Positions 4,671-59,922 of a stretch of DNA of 64,000 bases are shown in pieces. The translations under genes were made by a program, and so were the position numbers. The first letter of the stretch is position 1. Every line of letters starts with the position of its first letter. The stretch comes from Escherichia phage Pollock: sequence record NC_027381.1; one strand, written 5' to 3'. Below the pieces are notes generated by a model. That model searched no databases and had not been told where the DNA came from. It worked only from the letters and a program-made list of their open reading frames with translations.

Positions 4671-4843
4671 TGACTGAACCAATGAGTAAGTTTGAGCTAG
4701 AAAGACATATCCATAATCTTAAGGAATATGATTCCAAGATTGCTGGTCATGAATCTGAAGTAGTTCGTCTACAAGAAGAACGTCGAGAGTACATTAATCG
4801 ACACAATCTTAACAAGATTGCAGAGAAGGTATTTCCTGCTTAA
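4670..4843 (+). CDS. hypothetical small protein (57 aa, coiled-coil-like)
   Basis: ATG overlaps dut stop (GTGATGA); not in ORF track because under 60 aa; translated by eye. Confidence 0.3.
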   Translation: MTEPMSKFELERHIHNLKEYDSKIAGHESEVVRLQEERREYINRHNLNKIAEKVFPA

Positions 4844-4865
4844 GCGCCTACGGCGCTCTCTTTGG
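4843..4865 (+). promoter_or_regulatory. recurrent motif: GC hairpin with 3-nt loop (aGCGCC-TAC-GGCGCt) followed by TCTCTTTGG
   Basis: one of four near-identical instances (4843, 5646, 13796, 59899); function unknown. Confidence 0.4.
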
Positions 4866-5713: not shown

Positions 5714-6163
5714 ATGGGTTTATTTGGTTTTGGTAAGAAAAAAGTTAGTCAGAAAGTAGAACAAATGCGAGCTACCGCTGGAAAGATGGAAAATAAAGAT
5801 ATCGTTGAAGCAGGTATCGCTGTAATGGTTGGTGTAGCATTTGCAGATAAATCTTGCTCTGATGAAGAAATTGAAATTCTGGAAAATATCATTGAATCTG
5901 ATGACACCTTTGCAGAATGGCGTTCTGAAACTCAGGCAATGACTAATAAATGGATAAGCAAATTCCAGAAATTCCATCGTGGTGCAATGATGGATTTGGA
6001 AAAAGAATTTAACGACCTGAAAGGAGACCCTGCTGGTCAGAAACGTGCTTTGCTGTGTGGTATTGCCGTAGCAGAAGATGATGAAGGCATGGGTGCAGAA
6101 GAAAAAGCTTTTCTTGAAAAAGTTGCAGGTTGGGCAGGCATCCGTTTGGATACTTTACTGTAA
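5714..6163 (+). CDS. TerB-like protein (tellurite-resistance TerB domain family)
   Basis: 149 aa; two-part helical architecture with acidic blocks (SDEEIEILENII ... AEDDEGMGAEEKAFLEKVAGWAGI) recognised by eye as TerB-like; not database-verified. Confidence 0.45.
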   Translation: MGLFGFGKKKVSQKVEQMRATAGKMENKDIVEAGIAVMVGVAFADKSCSDEEIEILENIIESDDTFAEWRSETQAMTNKWISKFQKFHRGAMMDLEKEFNDLKGDPAGQKRALLCGIAVAEDDEGMGAEEKAFLEKVAGWAGIRLDTLL

Positions 6164-6704: not shown

Positions 6705-6788
6705 ATGCGTCCTACAGCTATTAAAAAAGCTATTGAAAGAGCTTTTGCAGCAGGACTTGTTCCTTTTATTAAAGGTAGTCCGGGTATT
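6705..6788 (+). CDS. MoxR-like AAA+ ATPase, exon 1 (ends inside Walker A: ...FIKGSPGI)
   Basis: ATG 6705; reading frame stops immediately after GSPGI (TGA at 6789); the GKS that completes the P-loop is at 7179. Confidence 0.55.
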
Positions 6789-7178
6789 TGATTTTACAAG
6801 ATACCCTAAGCAGTGATGCTTAGTAAAAAATCCCTTGAATTGCTGGAAACCCTTAAAGCTGAATTAACTACTGCGAGTTGAAAAACAAAGCCAATGTTTA
6901 AAAATAATTCAGATATGTAGGCAATCAGCAGCCAAGCTCCTAAGGTTTAGGATATTAAGCTATGGAGAAGGTTCAACGACTAGGCGTAAGCCGTACACTC
7001 AAGTGAGTGGAAGTGGGGGACTCTTTACAAACTTACCACCATGGAATACCTTTTGTATTTGCAAAGAAAGGTCTATGTCGTAAATGTAGTAAAGATGAAG
7101 ATATAGTCTCGTCTTATGTGAAAGCATAAGCTGTTTAATAAACAGAGGGTAGCTTAACGAACTACCCTGAAGATTACG
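6789..7178 (+). ncRNA. group I intron 1 (ORF-less), interrupting the AAA ATPase Walker A
   Basis: ~390 nt between exon end (last nt T) and exon 2 (preceded by G); contains AACGACTAGGCG...CTCAAGTGAGTGGAAG core-like element shared with intron 2; exact boundaries approximate. Confidence 0.5.
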
Positions 7179-7421
7179 GGTAAATCTGCAATTATTCGTC
7201 AAATTGCAAAAGAAGCTAAATTATTGGTTATTGACCTTCGTTTAGGTCAATGTGACCCAACTGATTTATTGGGATTTCCAAATATTGAGAATGGACGGTC
7301 TGTATATCATCCACCAAAAGATATTCCAATTATTGGGGATGAAATTCCTAAAGGATATAACGGTTGGCTGTTATTCCTTGATGAAATGAATACAGCACCT
7401 AAAGCTGTTCAGGCTGCTGCT
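7179..7421 (+). CDS. MoxR-like AAA+ ATPase, exon 2 (GKSAIIRQIAKEAKLLVIDLRLGQ ... Walker B LLFLDEMN)
   Basis: no start codon or RBS of its own; in-frame stop at 7155 upstream; ends with stop directly after AVQAAA. Confidence 0.55.
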
Positions 7422-8265
7422 TAAATTAATAGGCATTTATGGGGGAAACCTCATATCTAAAGCTACTTAAAACGGGGAACTCTTAGTAGTGTATATACAC
7501 TAAAGACAATCCGTTGCTAAATAGGAATTAAGATGCAAGAAGTTTGGAAAGCTATTCCCGGATATGAGAAAGAATATGAAATTTCTACTCATGGACGGAT
7601 TAAGAGTTTAGATAGAGTCGTTCCTTGTAAACATGGCACTCGCCTTGTTAAAGGAAAATTATTAAAAACCTATATTAATCGAAAAGGGTATTTAATTGTT
7701 ACTTTATCTAAAGAAAATAAACTGAAAACATATACCGTACATCAGTTAGTTGCTCTTACATTTATTCCAAATTTCATTAAAGGCACAGAAATTAATCATA
7801 AAGACGGTAATAAATCCAATCCAGTATTAGATAATTTAGAAATTAGCAACCCTAGCCATAACCAGTTACATGCTATAGCTACAGGTCTTAAAGCAAAGGT
7901 TGGTAAGAGTAAATACCACAATGTAACTTACATTAAAAACCCACGGGCTAAGAAAAAGTGGGCTGCAAGTATAAGTTATAATGGGGAAAAATCTTTTGGA
8001 TGGAAAACATTTATGACAGAAGAAGAAGCTGCAAGATATGTAGATAAACTTCTTGATGAAATAGGTGATACTTCCCGTTTAAGAAATTTCTAATTAATTC
8101 CTTAAATGCCCAACGACTAGTCGAAAGACGTAGGCTCAAGTGAGTCGAAAAAGTAGCTCCCCAAACAAGTAAAGTTGTGGGGATTGATATAGTCTGCTCT
8201 ATATAGAAATATATAGCTGGATTAATTATCCGGGTAATGATTAACGACCATTACTGAACATAAGG
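7422..8265 (+). mobile_element. group I intron 2 carrying an HNH homing endonuclease ORF (td-like)
   Basis: 7462-7530 CTTAAAACGGGGAACTCTTAGTAG...AGACAATCCGTTGCTAAATAGG closely matches the phage T4 td intron core as recalled; ORF begins right after this element; 3' part has CAACGACTAGTCG...CTCAAGTGAGTCG. Confidence 0.65.
7533..8093 (+). CDS. HNH homing endonuclease (intron-encoded)
   Basis: 186 aa; N-terminal WKAIPGYEKEYEISTHGRIKS, HNH core NHKDGNKSNPVLDNLEISNPSHNQLH, C-terminal AP2-like DNA-binding region. Confidence 0.8.
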   Translation: MQEVWKAIPGYEKEYEISTHGRIKSLDRVVPCKHGTRLVKGKLLKTYINRKGYLIVTLSKENKLKTYTVHQLVALTFIPNFIKGTEINHKDGNKSNPVLDNLEISNPSHNQLHAIATGLKAKVGKSKYHNVTYIKNPRAKKKWAASISYNGEKSFGWKTFMTEEEAARYVDKLLDEIGDTSRLRNF

Positions 8266-8955
8266 TATAAACTGTTGGACCGTATGGTAGGACAAACCAA
8301 ATTACATCCTAGTGTTTATATTGCTGCTGCTGGTAACAAAGATACAGATGGAGCAATTACTACTACTATGAGTAGTGCAACTCTATCTCGTATTGTTAGT
8401 ATGGAACTAGAAGTTAACTTTAATGATTGGGCTGTATGGGCATTAGCCAATAACATTGACCATCGCATCATGGGATATCTTCAGTTCAAACCAGAAGCAT
8501 TCCATAAATTTGACCCTAAAAATCTTAAAGAACCTTTTCCATGCCCACGTACATGGGAGTTCATTAACCGTGCTATTAATGGATTAGATGTATCTTTAAA
8601 TTCTGATTTGGGTTTATTGTCTGGAATTATTGGTAATGGCACTGCTCGTGAATTTATTGAGTATTGTGCTATCTATGGTGAGATTGCTTCCTTTGAAGAA
8701 ATTATGTCTAATCCAGAAAGCATTGTCATCAAAGACAGACCAGACATTAAGTATGCATATGCTGGTTTTGTAGCTTCTCGCATTACCCCTGAAAATGCAT
8801 CTCAATTAATGAAATTCATTAATCGACTGCCCGTTGAATTTCAGATTGTAACTTTGAGTAATGCTTTTAAAGCTAAACCTCTCATTTCTCAAGTTCCAGA
8901 AATAATGGAATGGATTACTCGTTATGCCAACGAGTCAGGTGAAGGGATGCTCTAA
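8266..8955 (+). CDS. MoxR-like AAA+ ATPase, exon 3 (C-terminal part)
   Basis: AVQAAA | (YKL)LDRMVGQTKLHPSVYIAAAGN continues the AAA fold after Walker B; ORF track start 8275 is a TTG; 5' boundary approximate. Confidence 0.5.
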   Translation, partial: YKLLDRMVGQTKLHPSVYIAAAGNKDTDGAITTTMSSATLSRIVSMELEVNFNDWAVWALANNIDHRIMGYLQFKPEAFHKFDPKNLKEPFPCPRTWEFINRAINGLDVSLNSDLGLLSGIIGNGTAREFIEYCAIYGEIASFEEIMSNPESIVIKDRPDIKYAYAGFVASRITPENASQLMKFINRLPVEFQIVTLSNAFKAKPLISQVPEIMEWITRYANESGEGML

Positions 8956-10069
8956 TAAGGAGTTTCCTATGGATAAGAATAAAGCACTGGATTTAGCCAA
9001 AGTAGATTTATTTGCCCGTAAACAAAATACTTTTATTTGTTCCATCTTTTGCTCACTTCAGCTTAAGTGGGACGATACCATCCCTACAGCTTGTACTGAT
9101 GGTTTGAGTATCTTGATAAATCCAGATTATTTTATGGATTTACCACGTCCAATGCGAGTGACACTTCTTGCTCATGAGACGTGGCATGTTGCTTTAAAAC
9201 ATGTCTTAAGGGTTACGGGAAGAAATCCAAAATTATGGAATTATGCTTGTGATTATTACATCAATAATATGCTTGATGATGCTAAGTATGTTATTGGTAC
9301 TGGTTGGCTATTAGACCATCAGTATGATGGCATGAGTGCTCCAGAAATCTATAACAAGCTACAAAAATCCAGTAAAAACCTGCCTCAAAATTTATTAGGT
9401 ATGGATATTAAACCCTGTCCTTCTTCATCAGAAGAAGCTATTGAATCACAAATTGATTCTATGCTTATTCGTGGCTCTATTGCTGCAAAGCAAGGAGGAC
9501 AAGCTGGAAGTATCCCCGGAGATATCCAAGCATATATTGATGAGCTTCTGAATCCTAAATTACCTTGGAACGATATTCTCAGAAATTTTATTAATGAGAT
9601 GACTCGTAATGACTACACTTGGGCTAAACCTAATAAACGGTATTTGCCTGATATTTATTTACCTTCTCTAAATTCTGAAGGTCTAGAACATATCATTTTT
9701 TATACTGATATTTCTGGTTCAGTATCTGATACACAATTTGGTGTGTATATCAGTGAAATTCATGCAATTAAAACAACATTGAATCCAAAACGAATTACAG
9801 TATGTACGTTCGATACAAAGATTCATGAAGTGTATGAATTAGAAGAAGGAGATGATATTAGTAAGTGTACGTTTACAGGTAGAGGAGGTACATCTCTTAC
9901 TTGTGTGTATGAACATGCTAAGAAAGAGAAACCAGAACTCATCGTAATATTTTCTGATTTGGATTGTGCTCCAATGAAGGAACAACCTACACCTAATGTC
10001 ATTTGGGTATGTTTGGACAATCCAACAAAAACAGTTGATTTTGGTCAACTGATTCATGTGAAAAGTTAA
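8924..10069 (+). CDS. HExxH metallopeptidase-like / von Willebrand factor A domain protein (MoxR partner)
   Basis: 381 aa; LLAHETWHVALKH (HExxH); MIDAS-like IIFYTDISGSVSD (DxSxS); overlaps ATPase 3' end. Confidence 0.6.
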   Translation: MPTSQVKGCSNKEFPMDKNKALDLAKVDLFARKQNTFICSIFCSLQLKWDDTIPTACTDGLSILINPDYFMDLPRPMRVTLLAHETWHVALKHVLRVTGRNPKLWNYACDYYINNMLDDAKYVIGTGWLLDHQYDGMSAPEIYNKLQKSSKNLPQNLLGMDIKPCPSSSEEAIESQIDSMLIRGSIAAKQGGQAGSIPGDIQAYIDELLNPKLPWNDILRNFINEMTRNDYTWAKPNKRYLPDIYLPSLNSEGLEHIIFYTDISGSVSDTQFGVYISEIHAIKTTLNPKRITVCTFDTKIHEVYELEEGDDISKCTFTGRGGTSLTCVYEHAKKEKPELIVIFSDLDCAPMKEQPTPNVIWVCLDNPTKTVDFGQLIHVKS

Positions 10070-10151: not shown

Positions 10152-10556
10152 ATGTTTAATATTCATAAAGCTGTACGTGATGCAGCTAATTCTATGTACC
10201 CAAAGAAAATTAAAATGGAAGTACCAAGTAATCTTCCTTTATCTAATAACCGTTGTCATTACAACGCTGTACAAGCAGTTAAAAATAATTTAGCTGCTGG
10301 AATATTAGAAGTAGTTATTATTTATAAAAATGACTGTACAGTTCATTATGTAAATGTATTACCTAATGGTACTTGTGTAGATTTCACATTAGGAGTCATG
10401 TGTATAAATGATGATTATCGTTTTATACGTCATGTTTCTCCTAATGAATATGACACCATTAATAAAACTTTAAAAAATGCTAAGGATAAGTTATATGCTT
10501 CAACCCCTTGGTACATACAGAAATTAATAAAACTTTCTGGTAAAGATTGGTGTTAA
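10152..10556 (+). CDS. hypothetical protein
   Basis: 134-aa ORF, Cys-containing. Confidence 0.35.
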   Translation: MFNIHKAVRDAANSMYPKKIKMEVPSNLPLSNNRCHYNAVQAVKNNLAAGILEVVIIYKNDCTVHYVNVLPNGTCVDFTLGVMCINDDYRFIRHVSPNEYDTINKTLKNAKDKLYASTPWYIQKLIKLSGKDWC

Positions 10557-11371
10557 TAATGAAAGAACAAGAACAACTTAGAAAAGATATTTCTCGTATC
10601 TTTTCAATCTTTAAAGCCAGTGAATGTAAATTACGTCCTCATTTCATTCTTACTGGAGAAAGTGGTACTGGAAAAACTTTCTTAATTAAGTCTTTAACTG
10701 AACAGCATAAAATGGATTATATTGAAATTAATGCTGCTCAGCTAACTAAAGAAGGTTTATCGGGAAATAGCTTAAGTAAGGCACTTGCTCCTTTACGCCA
10801 AGCTAATGGTAATCCTGTCATCTGTTTTGTAGATGAATTCGATAAATTATTTATCGCAGGGAATAACAATAGTGAATTAGCTCATGAATCTACCAATGGA
10901 GTTCAAAACGAATTCCTTAAGATTCTTGAATCTGAATGTACTTCTGTATTTGGTGATTATGGTAAATATGTAGATGTTCCTGTAAATAATGTTCTATTTG
11001 TATTTGCAGGAGCATTCAATGGTGAACCAAATATCACTTTAGATAAGCTACGTACTTTTGGTGTTAAAACTGAATTTTTAGGTCGTGTGGGTTTAGTTTA
11101 TAACACTGTCAAAATTAGCTTAGAAAGTCTTATTCAAGTCTTAAAAGATTCAGACACTCTCACTATGTATCTGGATTTATTTCCAGAAGTTAAACGAGAG
11201 AAAGCCATCAAAGATATCTCAGCATTTATCAAAGATAATTATGAGATGAATACTTTGGGTATTCGTATGGTTAATACGTTAATTACTCAATATTTCATTC
11301 AAGATGGAAAACTCACCCGAGATGAAGTTAAAACCAGTACTTTCCAAAATAAACTTAAATTTGGTGAGTAG
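10547..11371 (+). CDS. AAA+ ATPase (P-loop NTPase)
   Basis: 274 aa; Walker A ILTGESGTGKTFLIKSL; Walker B VICFVDEFDKLF. Confidence 0.5.
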   Translation: MVLIMKEQEQLRKDISRIFSIFKASECKLRPHFILTGESGTGKTFLIKSLTEQHKMDYIEINAAQLTKEGLSGNSLSKALAPLRQANGNPVICFVDEFDKLFIAGNNNSELAHESTNGVQNEFLKILESECTSVFGDYGKYVDVPVNNVLFVFAGAFNGEPNITLDKLRTFGVKTEFLGRVGLVYNTVKISLESLIQVLKDSDTLTMYLDLFPEVKREKAIKDISAFIKDNYEMNTLGIRMVNTLITQYFIQDGKLTRDEVKTSTFQNKLKFGE

Positions 11372-11508
11372 TACGTCTAAATCTCCTATTGCATGGGATA
11401 TCTTTCGTATCCCTTCAAAACATGTATGTCGAACCAAGAAACGCACTGTAGCCACTATTGCTCGTAATAAGGGTTATCGTGTGATTCCTGTGTTCGGAAG
11501 AAGTTAAA

Positions 11509-11523
11509 GCCCCTTCGGGGCTT
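11509..11523 (+). promoter_or_regulatory. GC hairpin with 3-nt loop (AGCCCC-TTC-GGGGCT)
   Basis: same hairpin architecture as the recurrent motif but without TCTCTTTGG; ~80 nt upstream of a highly codon-biased gene. Confidence 0.3.
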
Positions 11524-11601
11524 GCCTCGGAAAGAAAGAGGAATTAATCCTCTTCAAATTAAACTCTATTTTTAATCCCAATCTGAAAAGGTAAATGAAA
11601 A

Positions 11602-13044
11602 ATGGCTAAGACTCTTGAAAATGAAGAAAAGAAAGTTCACGTTGCTGACGTTGTTAAACACGGTGAGAAACTGATTCTCCCTGAAAACATGTCTATGTCT
11701 GATGCAATTGATTTGCTGAAGCGTCGTCAGAAGTACGAAGAAGAAGAAGTAATTGTTCGTCGTACTTATAACGTATTCCCATGGGATGGTGCTCATGCAC
11801 TGATGCTGGCTCTGACTGAACGTTATGGTTGGGCTGCTGCTGAAGCAACTCCGGGATTCTTTGGTTCTAACCCTCCGCAAATGCTGGATGTTCAGGTTGG
11901 TTATGGTCAAACCAAGAAAGTACCTTGGGGTCGTTTCTCTTTGCCTCAAGTAGATGGATTTGTTCAGTGCTCTGCACAGAAGAAAGATGGTCGTATTAGC
12001 TTTGAACTAGTTGGTAAAGTTCTGCGTAAAGACGAAAAGACCATCGAACTGCTATTTGATACTGTAGAAAAAACTCTGCGTACTAATTCCATTTATATGG
12101 GTCAGGCTATCAAAATTCGTTTCCGTGATAACGATGGTGAACTGTTGGAAATGCCTGAACCAGAATTTATGGATTTACGTGGTATCAGCCGTAATTCTCT
12201 GGTTTATTCTGATGATGTTCAAAATCTGATTGAAACTAATCTGTTTACTCCGATTGAGCGTGTAGCAGATTGCATCATCAATGAAATTCCAGTTAAACGT
12301 GGTGTACTGCTTGGTGGACCATATGGTACTGGTAAAACTATGGCTGCAACTGTTGCTGCTTCTCTGGCTACCAGCGTTGGTGTTACTTACGTATATGTAC
12401 CTCGTTGTGATGAACTGTCTGATGCAATTCAGTTTGCTAAGCAGTATAGCGATAAAGCGTGTGTAATCTTCTGCGAAGATATTGACCGTGCTGTATCTGG
12501 TGAACGTAGTGTTAAGATGGATGACATCCTGAATATTCTGGATGGTATTGATACTAAAACGTCTCGCATCATCACTGTTCTGACTACTAACCATCTGGAA
12601 AATATTAACCCAGCAATGCTGCGTCCGGGTCGTCTGGATGCAATCATTGATGTTACTCCGCCAGATGCTAAAGCAGTTGAAAAACTGGTACGTCTGTATG
12701 GTCGTGATACCATTGCTGCTGATGCAGACCTGACTCTGGTTGGTGAAGCTCTGGCAGGTACTATCCCTGCGGTAATTGCAGAAGTTGTTAAACGTGCTAA
12801 GTTGCACCAACTTCAGTATCAAGAGCCGGGTACTATGATTAAAGAAATCAGTGGTCAAGCTCTGCTGGATTCTGCTCTGACTATTCAAGCACAGCGTAAG
12901 CTGCTGGAAGAACAGTCTAAACCAAAAGTTAAAGAACCTACCTTTAACGAAACTATTGCTTCTGCCGTTGCTCCTGCAATTGAAGCTGCGGTAAGCAAAG
13001 TTACTAATCAGGTATCTGAACTGCACGAGCGCATCTGCGACTGA
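11602..13044 (+). CDS. classical AAA-family ATPase (FtsH/Cdc48-type AAA domain, no protease domain seen)
   Basis: 480 aa; Walker A LLGGPYGTGKTM; Walker B CVIFCEDIDR; ILDGIDTKTSRIITVLTTNHLENINPAMLRPGRLD; strongly CTG/CGT/GGT-biased codon usage unlike neighbours. Confidence 0.7.
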   Translation: MAKTLENEEKKVHVADVVKHGEKLILPENMSMSDAIDLLKRRQKYEEEEVIVRRTYNVFPWDGAHALMLALTERYGWAAAEATPGFFGSNPPQMLDVQVGYGQTKKVPWGRFSLPQVDGFVQCSAQKKDGRISFELVGKVLRKDEKTIELLFDTVEKTLRTNSIYMGQAIKIRFRDNDGELLEMPEPEFMDLRGISRNSLVYSDDVQNLIETNLFTPIERVADCIINEIPVKRGVLLGGPYGTGKTMAATVAASLATSVGVTYVYVPRCDELSDAIQFAKQYSDKACVIFCEDIDRAVSGERSVKMDDILNILDGIDTKTSRIITVLTTNHLENINPAMLRPGRLDAIIDVTPPDAKAVEKLVRLYGRDTIAADADLTLVGEALAGTIPAVIAEVVKRAKLHQLQYQEPGTMIKEISGQALLDSALTIQAQRKLLEEQSKPKVKEPTFNETIASAVAPAIEAAVSKVTNQVSELHERICD

Positions 13045-13070
13045 ATCATATTCGTTAAGTGATTCTCTAA

Positions 13071-13096
13071 TAGCCCTTCAATGAGGGGCTATTTTA
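13071..13096 (+). terminator. terminator-like hairpin
   Basis: tagccc-ttcaatgag-gggcta followed by ttttag. Confidence 0.4.
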
Positions 13097-13114: not shown

Positions 13115-13795
13115 ATGAAAAATCTTTATCAGAAGATTAATGGAAGCCAGTACAACCGAATCTTCGTTGTGGGAGATTTACATGGTTGTTTCGATGCTCT
13201 TCAAAAAGAAATGTGGGCTGTTCAATTTAATACTGAAACAGACCTTATTATATCTGTAGGTGATTTAATTGACCGTGGTACTCAAAACGTAGAGTGTTTA
13301 CGTCTATTAAAAGAACCTTGGTTTAAAGCTGTTTTAGGTAATCATGAAGTAATGGCATTGAATGCCTTATCTTCTGAACTTGACAGTGAAGAATCCAACT
13401 TAGCCTATTATAACTGGTTTAGTAATGGGGGTAGTTGGATTATGGATATTACGGAAGAACAGAAACCAGAAGTATTAGAGTTATTTGGTCTGGTAGCTGA
13501 ATTACCGGGAATCATCGAAATCTCTGTAGATGATAAAACTATTGTTGTTTGTCATGCAGACTACCCTTCAAATCAGTATGAATTCAATAAACCTATTGAT
13601 GAAAATACCCTTATTTGGGGAAGAGGACGTATTGTTCTAAACCAAAATAAAAAAGGTACTGTTATTGAAGGTGCTGATGAATTCTATTTTGGACATACCC
13701 CAGTTAAAGAACCTACTAAATTCTATAATCAAAACTATATTGATACAGGAGCAGTATTTCCTGTTGGTCAATTAAGTATGATTCAAATCAAATAA
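13115..13795 (+). CDS. Ser/Thr protein phosphatase (PPP / calcineurin-like metallophosphoesterase, lambda-PPase-like)
   Basis: 226 aa; GDLHGC (GDxHG), GDLIDRG (GDxxDRG), GNHE motifs in canonical order. Confidence 0.85.
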   Translation: MKNLYQKINGSQYNRIFVVGDLHGCFDALQKEMWAVQFNTETDLIISVGDLIDRGTQNVECLRLLKEPWFKAVLGNHEVMALNALSSELDSEESNLAYYNWFSNGGSWIMDITEEQKPEVLELFGLVAELPGIIEISVDDKTIVVCHADYPSNQYEFNKPIDENTLIWGRGRIVLNQNKKGTVIEGADEFYFGHTPVKEPTKFYNQNYIDTGAVFPVGQLSMIQIK

Positions 13796-13817
13796 CTGCC
13801 TACGGCAGTTTCTTTGG
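13796..13817 (+). promoter_or_regulatory. recurrent motif: hairpin CTGCC-TAC-GGCAG followed by TTTCTTTGG
   Basis: third instance; immediately after the phosphatase stop. Confidence 0.4.
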
Positions 13818-16151: not shown

Positions 16152-16396
16152 TGGATATCGCATTTGTAGTTTCCAAATTGATTGTTACAGAGTACACGTT
16201 GCTTAGACAATGGTGGCCTGAACAATTACGTCAATCCAGATATGTAGATAATGGAATGACTAGAACTTACTTCTTAGATACACATCCATCCCCTGAACTT
16301 CAAGAACTCATAGAAGAGTTACATAAGTTTGGGAGAGAGTATCGACTTATAGATTTAAGAGGAGTGGAAATAGATAATGCGTCATATAATCTTTGA
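16151..16396 (+). CDS. hypothetical protein
   Basis: 81-aa ORF. Confidence 0.35.
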   Translation: MDIAFVVSKLIVTEYTLLRQWWPEQLRQSRYVDNGMTRTYFLDTHPSPELQELIEELHKFGREYRLIDLRGVEIDNASYNL

Positions 16397-18323
16397 ACAA
16401 AATCAAAGATATCCAATCGCCATTCTTATTAAACCTCAACAACTAAAGAAGAAAGAGATATTAGAAGCTTATATCAATCCTACTGGAATCAAGCCAAATC
16501 AATTTATTGCATTTGACCTTGAGTACAATGGGAAAAAAGCTCCTGTATCTATGCAGAAAGACTATCTTAAAGTCTTACTACCAGAGCTTTGTAATTTAAG
16601 AACAGAATATATTCTGTGCTGTGATAGTGCATATTTCAAAACCTTAACCAAGCAATCTAAAGCAGAACCTCATTGTGGTTATGTATTGCCTTGTGTCATT
16701 CCTGGTTTTGAACATCTAAATATTATTTTCTGTCCTAATTATGCTCAGATTTTCTATGACCCTTCTGTACAGGATAAAGTTAATCTGGCTCTCAAAGTTC
16801 TAGTAGATAAGGTAAATGGTCAATACCAAGAGATTGGTAAGAACATTATCCATACTGCTTACTATCCTTCTACAGTTGAAGAAATTGAAGCTTGGCTTGA
16901 ATCTCTACATCAATATCCAATTCTAGCTTCAGATATAGAGGCATTTAGTCTTAAATTCTATAAAGCAGGTGTAGGTACTATTGGATTTGCATGGGACCAA
17001 CACAATGGAGGAGCATTCGCTGTTGATTATACGAATGAACCAGACAAGGCTGAAAGAATTAGGCAGGCTCTTAAGAAGTTTTTTGAAACTTATGAAGGCA
17101 AACTGATTTGGCATAACTCAAGTTATGACTTAACAGTGCTTATTTACCAGCTTTGGATGAATGGTTTAGTAGACCAAAAAGGATTGCTTAAGGGTTTGCA
17201 CATCATGTGTCGTAATTTTCACGATACTAAGATTGTGACATATCTGGCTACAAACTCTTGTGCAGGTAATGAGTTAGGGCTAAAAGCTCAAGCTCATGAA
17301 TTTGCAGGAAACTATGCACAAGAAGATATTGATGATATTACTAAAATCCCATTACCAGACCTTCTGGAGTACAACTTAATTGACTGTCTAAGTACTTGGT
17401 ATGTTGCAGACAAACATGCAGATACTATGGTATTGGATGAACAATGGGAAATTTATAATACTCTGATGTTACCTTCGCTGAAGAATATTATTCAGATGCA
17501 ATTAACTGGTATGCCTATTGATATGGCAGAGGTTAAGAAGGTTAAAGCAGAAATGATTAAAGAGCGAGATGGTTATCTTAGAGCCATCAAGTCATTTGCA
17601 GTAGTAGATTTGTTAGTTAACAACCTACGTAAACAACATGTTGCTACTAGAAATGCTACGCTCAAAACCAAGCAAATTACAATGTCTGATGAGGAGACAT
17701 TAGCAATAGAGTTTAATCCAAACTCTAACCCTCAAATGCAGGAACTTTTGTATGAAATTATGGGATTACCTGTAATTGATTTAACTGATTCTAAGCAGCC
17801 TGCTACTGGTGCAGATACTCTAGAAAAGTTAATTCATCATACAGATGATGATAGACAGAAAAAGATTCTTGAATGCCTTATTAAATATTCTAAGGTAGAA
17901 AAAATTCTTTCTGCATTTATACCTGCATTCGAAGAAGCACCTTTAGCTGAAGATGGTACTCATTATTTATTCGGAAGCTATAACTTAGGTGGTACTGTAT
18001 CTGGTCGTTTGAGTTCATCAAAACCAAACATGCAACAAATTCCTTCCTCTAAGAGTCCTTACGCCAAACCTATAAAACGATGTTTTAAAGCTGGTAAAGG
18101 TTGGCTTCTTATTGGATTAGATTTTGCATCTCTTGAAGACCGTATTTCTGCTCTAACAACCAAAGACCCTAATAAATTGAAAGTGTATATGGGGGTGAAT
18201 GTTTATACGGTTACTATAGAGGGGGTTGACCATCATATTCGAGATGACGATACAATCATTTATGATGGTAAAACTTACACTGGTGAAGAGTTCTATGATG
18301 CTTTTACCTGTGGCCTTCTATGA
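16377..18323 (+). CDS. family A DNA polymerase, N-terminal polypeptide (3'-5' exonuclease + pol motif A)
   Basis: 648 aa; exo motifs ASDIEAFSL, YNLIDC; SGRLSSSKPNMQQIP; motif A LDFASLEDRI; homology ends near KVYMG (~18194) then reads ~43 codons into the inserted HNH element. Confidence 0.8.
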   Translation: MRHIIFEQNQRYPIAILIKPQQLKKKEILEAYINPTGIKPNQFIAFDLEYNGKKAPVSMQKDYLKVLLPELCNLRTEYILCCDSAYFKTLTKQSKAEPHCGYVLPCVIPGFEHLNIIFCPNYAQIFYDPSVQDKVNLALKVLVDKVNGQYQEIGKNIIHTAYYPSTVEEIEAWLESLHQYPILASDIEAFSLKFYKAGVGTIGFAWDQHNGGAFAVDYTNEPDKAERIRQALKKFFETYEGKLIWHNSSYDLTVLIYQLWMNGLVDQKGLLKGLHIMCRNFHDTKIVTYLATNSCAGNELGLKAQAHEFAGNYAQEDIDDITKIPLPDLLEYNLIDCLSTWYVADKHADTMVLDEQWEIYNTLMLPSLKNIIQMQLTGMPIDMAEVKKVKAEMIKERDGYLRAIKSFAVVDLLVNNLRKQHVATRNATLKTKQITMSDEETLAIEFNPNSNPQMQELLYEIMGLPVIDLTDSKQPATGADTLEKLIHHTDDDRQKKILECLIKYSKVEKILSAFIPAFEEAPLAEDGTHYLFGSYNLGGTVSGRLSSSKPNMQQIPSSKSPYAKPIKRCFKAGKGWLLIGLDFASLEDRISALTTKDPNKLKVYMGVNVYTVTIEGVDHHIRDDDTIIYDGKTYTGEEFYDAFTCGLL

Positions 18324-18840
18324 ACAACGGTATAAGATTTTTGATGAAGGTTTCATCTTAAATCTTGCAAACAATCAACTCCTAAAACCAATTCTCAATT
18401 CTAATGGATACCTTAAAGTTGGATTAGCTAATGGTGATGGTACTCATCATCAAGAGCTACTTCATATTCTGGTAGCTAAACACTTCATTCTAAATCCTTA
18501 TGGCTACAAACAGGTAAACCATAAAGATGGTAATAAACTGCATTGCCATAAGGACAATCTGGAATTGTGTTCTGCTACTCAGAACGTCAAACATGCATTT
18601 AAAACAGGACTACGCCCCGGTTATATGTCTGCTGATGATAAAGAGAAATATCTCTTTGAGGTACTAGCAGGCAAGCAAGTTAAGGACATTGCTTTTGAAA
18701 TAGGCAGACGTCCTGAAACTCTGCACAAGATGCTTAGAATCACTGCTGACCGACTTGGTATCCGAAATGAATGGGACGATGTTATGAGGAGAAATAGAAA
18801 AGATGTTGCTTTACGACAGCTTGCCAAAATCAACTCATGA
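18226..18840 (+). CDS. HNH homing endonuclease inserted within the DNA polymerase gene
   Basis: 204 aa; HNH core VNHKDGNKLHCHKDNLELCSATQNVKH; different frame from both polymerase parts; true start may be an internal Met (~18295). Confidence 0.7.
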   Translation: MTIIFEMTIQSFMMVKLTLVKSSMMLLPVAFYEQRYKIFDEGFILNLANNQLLKPILNSNGYLKVGLANGDGTHHQELLHILVAKHFILNPYGYKQVNHKDGNKLHCHKDNLELCSATQNVKHAFKTGLRPGYMSADDKEKYLFEVLAGKQVKDIAFEIGRRPETLHKMLRITADRLGIRNEWDDVMRRNRKDVALRQLAKINS

Positions 18841-19663
18841 CTTCACTGGCAAGAAAATTGACAACGTAGTCAAGGCTGGTAATTCGTCAGGGTATGATGG
18901 TCATAGTTTGAGGGCATTTGCTTACTTTGGCGACCAGATGCCTGATATTGTAGATACTGTGGAAAGTATCAATAGTATTCAGGAATTATATAAGGACTTT
19001 AGACAAGACTCTAAAGCTCCTACTTTTGCATTAACTTATCAAGGTACTTATCACACATTAATGGCTAACTGTGGTTTCCCAGAGGATAAAGCCAAAATGG
19101 TTGAGAAGAGGTATCACGAACTCTACTTCGTATCTGACCAATGGGTAAACGCTAAATTAACTCAAGCCAGTAAAGATGGATATATCACTGCTGCATTTGG
19201 ATTAAGAATCCGTACTCCATTACTTAAAAATGTTGTCTGGGGAATTAAACAAACTCCTTATGAAGCTAAAGCTGAAGGCAGAACTGCTGGAAATGCTTTA
19301 GGTCAATCATGGTGTTTATTAAATAACAGGGCAGCAAATGAATTTATGGAACGAGTATGGAATTCTCCATACGCATATGTAATTAAACCATGTGCTCAAA
19401 TCCATGATGCTCAATATTATCTGGTTCCAGATAACATCGACATTGTTCATTGGGTTAATGAAAATTTAGTCGAATGTATTGAGTGGCAAAACCATCCTGA
19501 TATTTATCACGATAAAGTGAAATTAGGAGGGGAATTAAGCGTCTTTTATCCATCATGGGCTAATGATATTTCATTGAAAAATGGAGCCTCTAAAGAGGAA
19601 ATCTTAAGCACATGTGAAATTGGATTAGATAAGTATCTTTACCCGGAGAAATATAAAAAATGA
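18803..19663 (+). CDS. family A DNA polymerase, C-terminal polypeptide (motifs B and C)
   Basis: 286 aa; YDGHSLRAFAYFGD (cf. Pol I DIHRATAAEVFG), motif B-like RQDSKAPTFALTYQGTY, motif C QIHDAQYY; own ATG overlapping the HNH ORF 3' end. Confidence 0.8.
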   Translation: MLLYDSLPKSTHDFTGKKIDNVVKAGNSSGYDGHSLRAFAYFGDQMPDIVDTVESINSIQELYKDFRQDSKAPTFALTYQGTYHTLMANCGFPEDKAKMVEKRYHELYFVSDQWVNAKLTQASKDGYITAAFGLRIRTPLLKNVVWGIKQTPYEAKAEGRTAGNALGQSWCLLNNRAANEFMERVWNSPYAYVIKPCAQIHDAQYYLVPDNIDIVHWVNENLVECIEWQNHPDIYHDKVKLGGELSVFYPSWANDISLKNGASKEEILSTCEIGLDKYLYPEKYKK

Positions 19664-59898: not shown

Positions 59899-59922
59899 AA
59901 GCACCTTCGGTGCTTTTCTTGG
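59899..59922 (+). promoter_or_regulatory. recurrent motif: hairpin AAGCACC-TTC-GGTGCTT followed by TTCTTGG
   Basis: fourth instance; in divergent region at the start of the plus-strand block. Confidence 0.4.

Follow-up and report, generated by a model that had tools for sequence, protein, structure and literature searches.

In a 64,000-nucleotide (nt) stretch of the genome of Escherichia phage Pollock (sequence record NC_027381.1; hereafter the window), the gene at 11602..13044 on the + strand encodes an AAA ATPase of 480 amino acids (aa) and 53 kDa, which on our leading, though tentative, reading would be a soluble, ring-forming classical AAA protein of the Bcs1/YjoB type, i.e., a chamber-forming chaperone or remodeller of folded proteins that is made in large amounts. 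This reading is preferred because the protein has ED in its Walker B motif, is missing pore loop 1 and has Bcs1 and YjoB as its best full-length Foldseek matches. The open reading frame, which starts with ATG and whose coordinates include the stop codon, lies exactly where a first-pass annotation of the window had placed it, and its full-length family match and orthologues mark it as a real gene. The window is ~83% identical at the nucleotide level to the Salmonella phages FSL SP-058 and UTK0001 (Schitoviridae, Humphriesvirinae, genus Ithacavirus), and by this likeness belongs to an N4-like phage. The + strand carries its early and middle genes and the - strand its late ones, and the AAA ATPase gene is located in the early/middle, replication-side transcription block.

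The codon preference of the gene is the strongest in the window. Its codon adaptation index (CAI), based on the Sharp and Li weights for highly expressed E. coli genes, is 0.546 and ranks first among 71 open reading frames (mean 0.253, standard deviation 0.087); the per-gene comparison that the first-pass annotation had suggested as a check thus shows a real difference. Over 5000 synonymous resamplings with codon frequencies drawn from the window, the gene had a z score of 18.5, the capsid gene 12.3 and the gene for SSB 6.8, and its flanking genes, for a ClpX-like ATPase and a phosphatase, had scores of 0.1 and 0.7. Leu is encoded by CTG in 75% of cases (10% elsewhere in the window), Arg by CGT in 92% (43% elsewhere) and by AGA in 0% (39% elsewhere), and Gly by GGT in 89% (60% elsewhere). 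The reported preference for CTG, CGT and GGT was therefore genuine, but the favoured Thr codon is ACT (80%) and not, as had been stated, ACC (17%). A principal component analysis of relative synonymous codon usage (RSCU), which requires no external table, placed the gene at the extreme of the first component (5.23; 28% of variance), followed by the capsid gene (3.94), other late-strand genes and SSB, supporting both the proposed grouping with the capsid and SSB genes and the high expression that this usage had been taken to imply. The gene has a GC content of 43% compared with about 36% for the window, with the excess in codon positions 1 and 2, and since the GC content of its third positions (GC3) is as low as 0.30, the bias lies in which codons are chosen rather than in GC content. 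Wright's effective number of codons (33.8, the fourth lowest) does not by itself single the gene out, because AT-biased genes also score low, whereas the directional measures do.

The bias is shared by relatives of the gene. The FSL SP-058 orthologue (87% DNA identity) has a CAI of 0.657, uses CTG for 91% of Leu and ranks first of 21 regional genes. Beyond SP-058, bias toward the usage of the respective host was seen in six further elements infecting Proteobacteria, i.e., five phages and one ~99-kb Salmonella replicon. The orthologue of Erwinia phage Ea9-2 has the highest CAI of its locus (0.607), and the copy on the Salmonella replicon also ranks first (0.511). In the four phages with GC-rich hosts, the orthologue has instead the highest local GC3: 0.88 in BUCTxx99 (0.51-0.67 for the other genes), 0.84 in KPP25, 0.86 in PhiW-14 and 0.75 in Zuri. 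The orthologues are biased toward the codons of their own hosts, a pattern that fits translational selection and not the footprint of a donor, and the codon bias points to selection for high expression.

Pfam places an AAA domain (PF00004) at aa 235-351 (E-value 8e-16; 59.1 bits against a gathering score of 21.2), and the motifs GPYGTGKT and AMLRPGRLD, on which the gene was first recognized as encoding a classical-clade AAA protein, are present at aa 239-246 and aa 338-346, the latter within the second region of homology (SRH). The catalytic motifs are all intact. Walker A (12316..12339, +) has G239, G242, G244 and K245 invariant in an alignment of 45 family members, which is the basis of all of the invariance noted here. 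In Walker B, VIFCEDID (12463..12486, +; aa 288-295), ED replaces the usual DE, and E292, D293 and D295 are invariant, as are sensor-1 N330 and the Arg fingers R341 and R344 of the SRH (12583..12639, +). The region spanning beta2, pore loop 1 and alpha2 (12385..12447, +; TYVYVPRCDELSDAIQFAKQY) differs from that of p97: its loop is ~7 residues shorter, the HMMER alignment to p97 is gapped, and the beta2-alpha2 segment, which reads TYVYVPRCDELSD, has no aromatic-hydrophobic-Gly motif of pore loop 1. The family consensus has neither a conserved aromatic residue nor a conserved Gly in this region, and the pore-loop-2 region is likewise shortened relative to p97. In the model, the AAA core is followed by a helical lid (~aa 356-440) and a variable C-terminal helix (aa 448-479; together 12667..13041, +), and this C-terminal part is poorly conserved in the family alignment.

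The N-terminal portion begins with 20 polar residues predicted to be disordered (MAKTLENEEKKVHVADVVKH), after which comes an alpha+beta domain (11662..12096, +; aa 21-165) with two conserved loops, TPGFFGxxPP (aa 83-92) and VPWGRFxLP (aa 107-115). The first ~230 aa matched no Pfam family (E <= 10, 40 family members searched), a PDB profile search of the N-domain (E <= 10) gave no assignment, with no PDB chain, YjoB included, at E <= 0.1, and the domain was also unassigned in PHROGs, NCBIfam and PADLOC searches. No protease domain, second AAA domain or nucleic-acid-binding domain was detected with Pfam in the 480-aa protein, and neither its sequence nor its model has a hydrophobic or transmembrane helix anywhere. 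An uncharacterized N-terminal region of about 230 aa and the absence of a protease had both been claimed at the outset, and both stand. Between the N-domain and the AAA core, the models have an SIYxGKA motif, a beta-hairpin (~aa 169-189) and two helices (aa 204-226) that enter the core (12082..12285, +); in this linker F189 is invariant in the family alignment, and S163, Y165, G167 and F174 are nearly so. Bcs1 (PMC7994207, PMC12219900) and YjoB (PMC9565160) also have extra strands or helices before the AAA core, and the modelled hairpin and helices may correspond to two such N-terminal strands in Bcs1 and to S8-S9/H5-H6 in YjoB. The AlphaFold2 model of the full-length protein has a pLDDT of 87.9 and a pTM of 0.79, and a separate model of the N-terminal 208 residues has a pLDDT of 88.5.

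The first-pass annotation had likened the AAA domain to those of FtsH and Cdc48, but a specific resemblance to these was not supported. Sequence matches in the PDB do fall on AAA domains of p97, Cdc48, VAT, Afg2 and relatives, covering aa ~150-456 and mostly ~205-430, and YjoB is not among the top matches of these searches. The NCBIfam models for CDC48, PAN and FtsH, however, give 44-63 bits against cut-offs of 500-1008 (44 bits for the FtsH models, with cut-offs of 600 and 1008, and 63 bits for TIGR01243, the CDC48 model, with a cut-off of 803), and because of these scores the protein is placed, by sequence, in the classical clade yet in none of these families. Structure gave a different order: the top full-model Foldseek matches in the PDB were Bcs1 entries (8t14, 8tp1 and 9gsn; E about 4e-16, 424-443 aligned columns), YjoB (7w42/7w46) had the highest TMq, 0.49, and most matches to p97 and the proteasome Rpt subunits spanned only about 290-360 columns, corresponding to the AAA part. 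The Foldseek search proposed for the N-domain was also run, and in it Bcs1 took ranks 1-4 and was the sole PDB match at E <= 1e-3, a weak match with low TM-scores (0.27-0.32); N-domain searches returned no Cdc48 N-domain. Placement of the AAA module with the Bcs1/YjoB type is well supported, and homology of the N-domain to those of Bcs1 and YjoB is plausible but unproven.

Like YjoB, the phage protein is soluble and has one classical AAA domain, preceded by an alpha+beta N-domain of its own whose sequence relatives are confined to its own family, and both proteins have ED in Walker B. The beta-hairpin and two helices modelled ahead of the AAA core are a probable further likeness to YjoB. According to Kwon et al. 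(PMC9565160), the ED Walker B is found "exceptionally" in both YjoB and Bcs1, which are nonetheless active ATPases, and the YjoB substitutions E280Q and D281N are inactive. The phage protein differs in the length of its N-terminal region (about 230 aa vs 159), with no detected N-domain sequence similarity, and in its distribution, as YjoB is Bacillales-restricted and reported to be in the sigma-W regulon, whereas the hosts of the phages that carry this family are Proteobacteria and Actinobacteria; only YjoB has been shown to form a hexamer with a chamber and to act as a chaperone. With Bcs1/BCS1L (6SH3, 6UKO, 8T14, 9GSN), the phage protein has in common the ED Walker B and paired Arg fingers (R341/R344 vs R343/R346 in mouse), and Bcs1 has the top Foldseek rank for both the full model and the N-domain alone. 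A beta-rich N-terminal domain followed by extra strands toward the AAA sheet may be a further common feature. Unlike Bcs1, it has no transmembrane helix and no organellar context, the resemblance of its N-domain is slight (E about 1e-3, TM about 0.3) and no Pfam family, hence no Bcs1 N-domain model, matches it, and the "DDR" substrate motif at the alpha2 tip is not conserved, the phage protein having CDELSD; the heptamer and the translocation of the Rieske protein are specific to Bcs1. What p97/Cdc48/VAT, Rpt/PAN and FtsH share with the phage protein is Walker A and B, sensor-1, an SRH with two arginines and the best raw sequence scores, but the phage protein has one AAA domain (not two), ED not DE, and truncated pore loops, has no double-psi-barrel, OB or coiled-coil N-domain, M41 protease or transmembrane helices, and scores 10-20 times under the family cut-offs.

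The region upstream of the gene carries candidate signals for its expression. Hairpin A (11507..11523, +; AAGCCCC-TTC-GGGGCTT), a candidate N4-type hairpin promoter, has a 7-bp stem and a 3-nt loop, TTC, which is GAA on the template strand (TCC, i.e., GGA, in phages Pylas and TR2), with a C:G closing pair, and GG at 11529-11530, +14/+15 nt from the centre of the loop, is the predicted transcription start. In promoters of the N4 virion RNA polymerase (vRNAP), the 3-nt loop reads 5'-GRA-3' in the template strand and is closed by a C:G pair (PMC4496689), and transcription from the mapped early/middle hairpin promoters of LUZ7 begins at a G that is 13-15 nt away from the centre of the hairpin (PMC9163698); hairpin A conforms to N4-type promoters in stem (5-7 bp), loop, closing pair and start distance, and we infer that it is one. 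The motif AAGCNCCTYCGGNGCTT, allowing <=2 mismatches, has three matches in the window (0.06 by chance): exact ones at hairpin A and 59899, and one with two mismatches at 4842. The second exact copy, AAGCNCCTTCGGNGCTT at 59899, is at the head of the + strand block after the last late (- strand) gene, a block that is taken to be the early region. Within the predicted transcript, only a few nt from its start, is hairpin B (11536..11554, +; AAGAGGA-ATTAA-TCCTCTT), which has one compensatory pair and is a candidate 5' stabilizing stem-loop, and after it come a leader, ATCCC(A/C)ATCTGAAAAGGTAAA, nearly invariant in four phages, and a Shine-Dalgarno sequence, AAGG, at 11588-11591. Across the window, SP-058, Pylas and TR2, which were compared for hairpin conservation, hairpins A and B have compensatory changes in 3 of 14 stem pairs (two of them in A), with 98% of cells paired. 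Downstream, 25 nt after the stop codon, there is a terminator-like hairpin (13069..13093, +), the stem of which covaries in SP-058, Pylas and TR2; the Pylas record labels it a terminator. A scan for sigma-70 promoters upstream of the gene gave nothing convincing (2 sites in 3.4 kb, fewer than in shuffles). Taken from these signals, the gene would be a dedicated, probably monocistronic, high-output unit active in the early or middle phase.

Three other hairpins, at 4842-4858, 13794-13810 and 59899-59915, are GC-rich, with 6-7-bp stems and 3-nt loops, are intergenic on the + strand and are followed by GG at 14-15 nt, counted from the centre of the loop. Those at 4842 and 13794 share the loop TAC and a downstream sequence, CTTTGGTTA, and together the three are candidate N4-like promoters of two classes.

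The protein is a full-length member of PHROG 10440 (E 1.6e-277), a family labelled "unknown function", and N4 is absent among the matches listed, so that no well-characterized N4 family claims it. The GenBank names of its members conflict (FtsH, metalloprotease, cell division protein, DNA helicase activity protein, AAA-ATPase). The N-domain alone retrieves 1,155 cluster representatives at 50% identity, 240 of them at E <= 1e-30, and nearly all consist of N-domain plus AAA in 470-520 aa. Longer members (600-926 aa) have heterogeneous N-terminal extensions with Cys/His-rich repeats and SH3/KOW-like repeats, in which there were no Pfam domains and no obvious transmembrane helices. Amino acid identity to the orthologue is 93% in FSL SP-058, 89% in Klebsiella phage Pylas and 68% in the unrelated Pseudomonas phage KPP25. 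Full-length or near-full-length homologues exist in some schitovirus genera (Ithacavirus, Pylasvirus, Triduovirus, Johnsonvirus and Zurivirus), and others are found in KPP25, Stenotrophomonas phage BUCTxx99, Delftia phage PhiW-14, mycobacterial MabR prophages and Gordonia phages, as well as on the ~99-kb Salmonella replicons, which carry Rep3-type replication, SSB and primase genes. The neighbours of the gene differ in every lineage examined, usually with intergenic gaps on both sides of it, and ten loci of other phages and mobile elements have no conserved partner gene. In the McProf prophage it is in an accessory region between the lysis genes and attR, and in Gordonia phage Fryberger it belongs to a cassette of three genes in reverse orientation, flanked by the genes for the tail assembly chaperone and the tape measure. 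The gene thus behaves as an autonomous, mobile accessory gene. Our literature searches (including N4-like AAA, Bcs1-like phage proteins, anti-defence AAA+ proteins, and omics of Ea9-2, KPP25 and Pylas) found no paper that characterizes the family; the McProf papers list the gene (gp91) only as "AAA-ATPase", and the RNA-seq paper is silent on its expression in the lysogen.

How might such a protein work? By analogy to YjoB and Bcs1, protomers would form a ring, with the N-domains capping a chamber over the AAA ring, and ATP binding and hydrolysis would open and close the chamber, which would bind, hold or remodel folded or near-native clients without threading or unfolding them. YjoB is a hexamer whose N-domain-capped chamber is needed for its holdase activity (PMC9565160), and Bcs1, a heptamer that moves a folded protein, is a documented example of a non-unfolding AAA protein acting on a folded client. 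The phage protein would be produced in near-stoichiometric, capsid-like amounts from the N4-type hairpin promoter in the early-to-middle phase. Its client is somewhat more likely to be a conserved host protein or complex, in host takeover or counter-defence, than a phage structural protein, a weak preference that we hold because of the mobility of the gene across phages, the 60-70% identity retained in phages of different hosts, its accessory positions and its predicted early/middle expression. A bolder proposal, which we regard as doubtful, is that PHROG 10440 is a phage-wide family of "folded-protein cages", soluble and Bcs1-like, which an early-type hairpin promoter would supply in capsid-like amounts and which would capture or dismantle a conserved host complex, e.g., an immune effector or a central housekeeping machine.

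Among the alternatives, the one to which we give some credence, while thinking it unlikely, is that the protein is a chaperone that helps abundant proteins of the phage itself to fold or assemble, such as the capsid protein, the giant virion RNA polymerase or tail proteins. Phage-encoded chaperonins that fold phage proteins are a precedent, codon adaptation at or above that of the capsid gene suggests stoichiometric use, and YjoB, the closest characterized soluble relative, is a substrate-specific chaperone that needs its chamber (PMC9565160). Against a phage client, the gene is in the early/middle, replication-side block, away from the late structural genes; N4 and many schitoviruses, among the matches listed, are without it; it is 48-68% identical to its counterparts in KPP25, PhiW-14, BUCTxx99 and the ~99-kb Salmonella elements, whose structural modules differ from those of N4-like phages; and in McProf it is in the lysis cassette-attR region, which the authors consider mostly lysogeny-expressed. 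We find it improbable that the protein is instead a defence or superinfection-exclusion ATPase directed against competing phages and related to IetA of IetAS. The moron-like positions of the gene in McProf and Fryberger would suit such a role, and the PADLOC IetA models match aa 196-470 (E 3.6e-13), but the match is confined to the generic AAA core, the NCBIfam IteA_antiphage score of 39 bits compares with a cut-off of 510, the IetS protease or any other conserved partner is absent from all loci examined, and massive expression in strictly lytic N4-like phages is hard to square with exclusion.

The public names of the orthologues (FtsH, metalloprotease, cell division protein) and the best sequence matches, to AAA domains of p97, VAT, PAN and FtsH, would fit a threading unfoldase of the FtsH, ClpX or proteasomal-ATPase kind that feeds host or phage proteins to a protease acting in trans. 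Such a role is very improbable for a protein without a protease domain or a consistently adjacent protease gene, in which pore loop 1 is ~7 residues shorter and without the aromatic-hydrophobic-Gly motif, pore loop 2 is shortened, the scores are far under all equivalog cut-offs and the ED Walker B groups with Bcs1 and YjoB. There is a slim chance, at most, that the protein takes part in DNA transactions, as a loader or remodeller of replication or recombination complexes. In PhiW-14 the gene does adjoin those for UvsX and the gp41 helicase, in the Salmonella element it comes after an HU-like gene and one for an exonuclease (PF12684/DUF3799), in L008 it is downstream of YqaJ/RecT, and in the window it is in the replication-side block; these neighbours, however, are not conserved, a nucleic-acid-binding domain is undetected (Pfam), the protein has the classical-clade SRH with two Arg fingers, and its structural neighbours are protein remodellers. 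Equally slight is the likelihood that the codon usage was left by a recent horizontal transfer from a host-like donor and is uninformative on expression, which the first-pass annotation had offered beside high expression. The family is mobile between unrelated phages and the gene is richer in GC than the window, but its low GC3 and the excess GC at positions 1 and 2 indicate amino acid composition as the cause of that richness; the preferred CGT, GGT, ACT, TCT and CTG are typical of strongly expressed enterobacterial genes and not of the average host gene; and the bias lies on one RSCU axis with that of the capsid and SSB genes and recurs in the SP-058 orthologue, while the orthologues in Pseudomonas, Stenotrophomonas and Delftia phages have shifted the opposite way, to the GC3-rich usage of their hosts.

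Several points weigh against our preferred reading of a highly made, Bcs1/YjoB-type remodeller. Codon adaptation is a proxy for expression rather than a measurement of it, and the actinophage homologues show no codon-adaptation signal. Position -8 of both TTC-loop hairpins (11507 and 59899) is C, where the N4 vRNAP needs G, and hairpin A might rather serve as a terminator or as a site of RNA processing. Our leaning toward a host over a phage client draws wholly on arguments from distribution, and the literature searched yielded no client, ATPase assay or expression data for any family member.

The Bcs1/YjoB-type reading would replace a set of contradictory public names (FtsH, metalloprotease, cell division protein, helicase) with a single description, a soluble AAA protein without threading pore loops, for a large family (>1,100 clusters at 50% identity) whose genes in phages of Proteobacteria are consistently among the most codon-adapted. 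The analysis also corrects the idea that the codon bias marks recent transfer. Predicted synthesis at the level of the capsid protein makes this ATPase a clear experimental target: if its client is a host factor, an ATP-driven mechanism would be added to those of phage host takeover or counter-defence, and if it is a phage protein, this would be a new kind of virus-encoded chaperone. Should the proposal of a cage for host complexes be true, it would represent a new ATP-driven class, and the first cytosolic bacterial-virus relative of the mitochondrial Bcs1 translocase.

The neighbours that had been named for the gene were all identified: a second AAA+ ATPase, which is ClpX-like (10547-11371), a MoxR-like ATPase (last exon 8266-8955) with its partner, a DUF2201 metallopeptidase/VWA gene (8924-10069), and a NinI-like PPP phosphatase (13115-13795). 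The likeness of the ClpX-like product to ClpX and HslU is limited to their ATPase core (63 bits, where the cut-off is 359); it belongs to phrog_5534 ("unknown function"), and its gene shows no codon adaptation (z = 0.1). This gene and the Bcs1-like one occur together in the window and in SP-058, Pylas and TR2, and are ~2 kb apart in Ea9-2. Between the ClpX-like gene and hairpin A there is a small basic open reading frame of ~44-48 aa (window ~11361-11507), which reads ...PIAWDIFRIP..VCRTKK..VA.IAR..GYRVIPVFGR and is kept in SP-058, Pylas and TR2 with mostly third-position changes, though it is annotated in Pylas alone (gp41). Where its relatives have an ATG or GTG start, the window has ACG, and translation would have to begin at a TTG or GTG further upstream.

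The second-highest CAI in the window, 0.496, is that of a TerB-like gene at 5714-6163 ("tellurite resistance", phrog_632; 0.626 for its SP-058 orthologue), which is ~870 nt downstream of the 4842 hairpin, and its product is apparently another non-structural protein made in large amounts. A published survey reported a weak bL12-like ribosomal-protein domain in a 418-aa protein of FSL SP-058 and SP-076, one peptide of which was detected in purified ribosomes (PMC6375957).

Two genes that are intact in FSL SP-058 are split in the window. The DNA polymerase gene (16377-19663) is divided into aa 1-604 (16377-18188) and aa 605-864 (18884-19663) by 695 nt (18189-18883) that had no Rfam match at E < 0.01 and may be a divergent intron or other mobile insertion. 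The MoxR-like gene is in three pieces (6705-8955), encoding aa 1-28 (6705-6788), aa 29-109 (7179-7421) and aa 110-339 (8266-8955). Its first insert is a group I intron (Rfam RF00028, 6778-7130, 101 bits), and in the second (7422-8265) partial group I matches flank an open reading frame for an HNH/NUMOD-type homing endonuclease (7533-8093).

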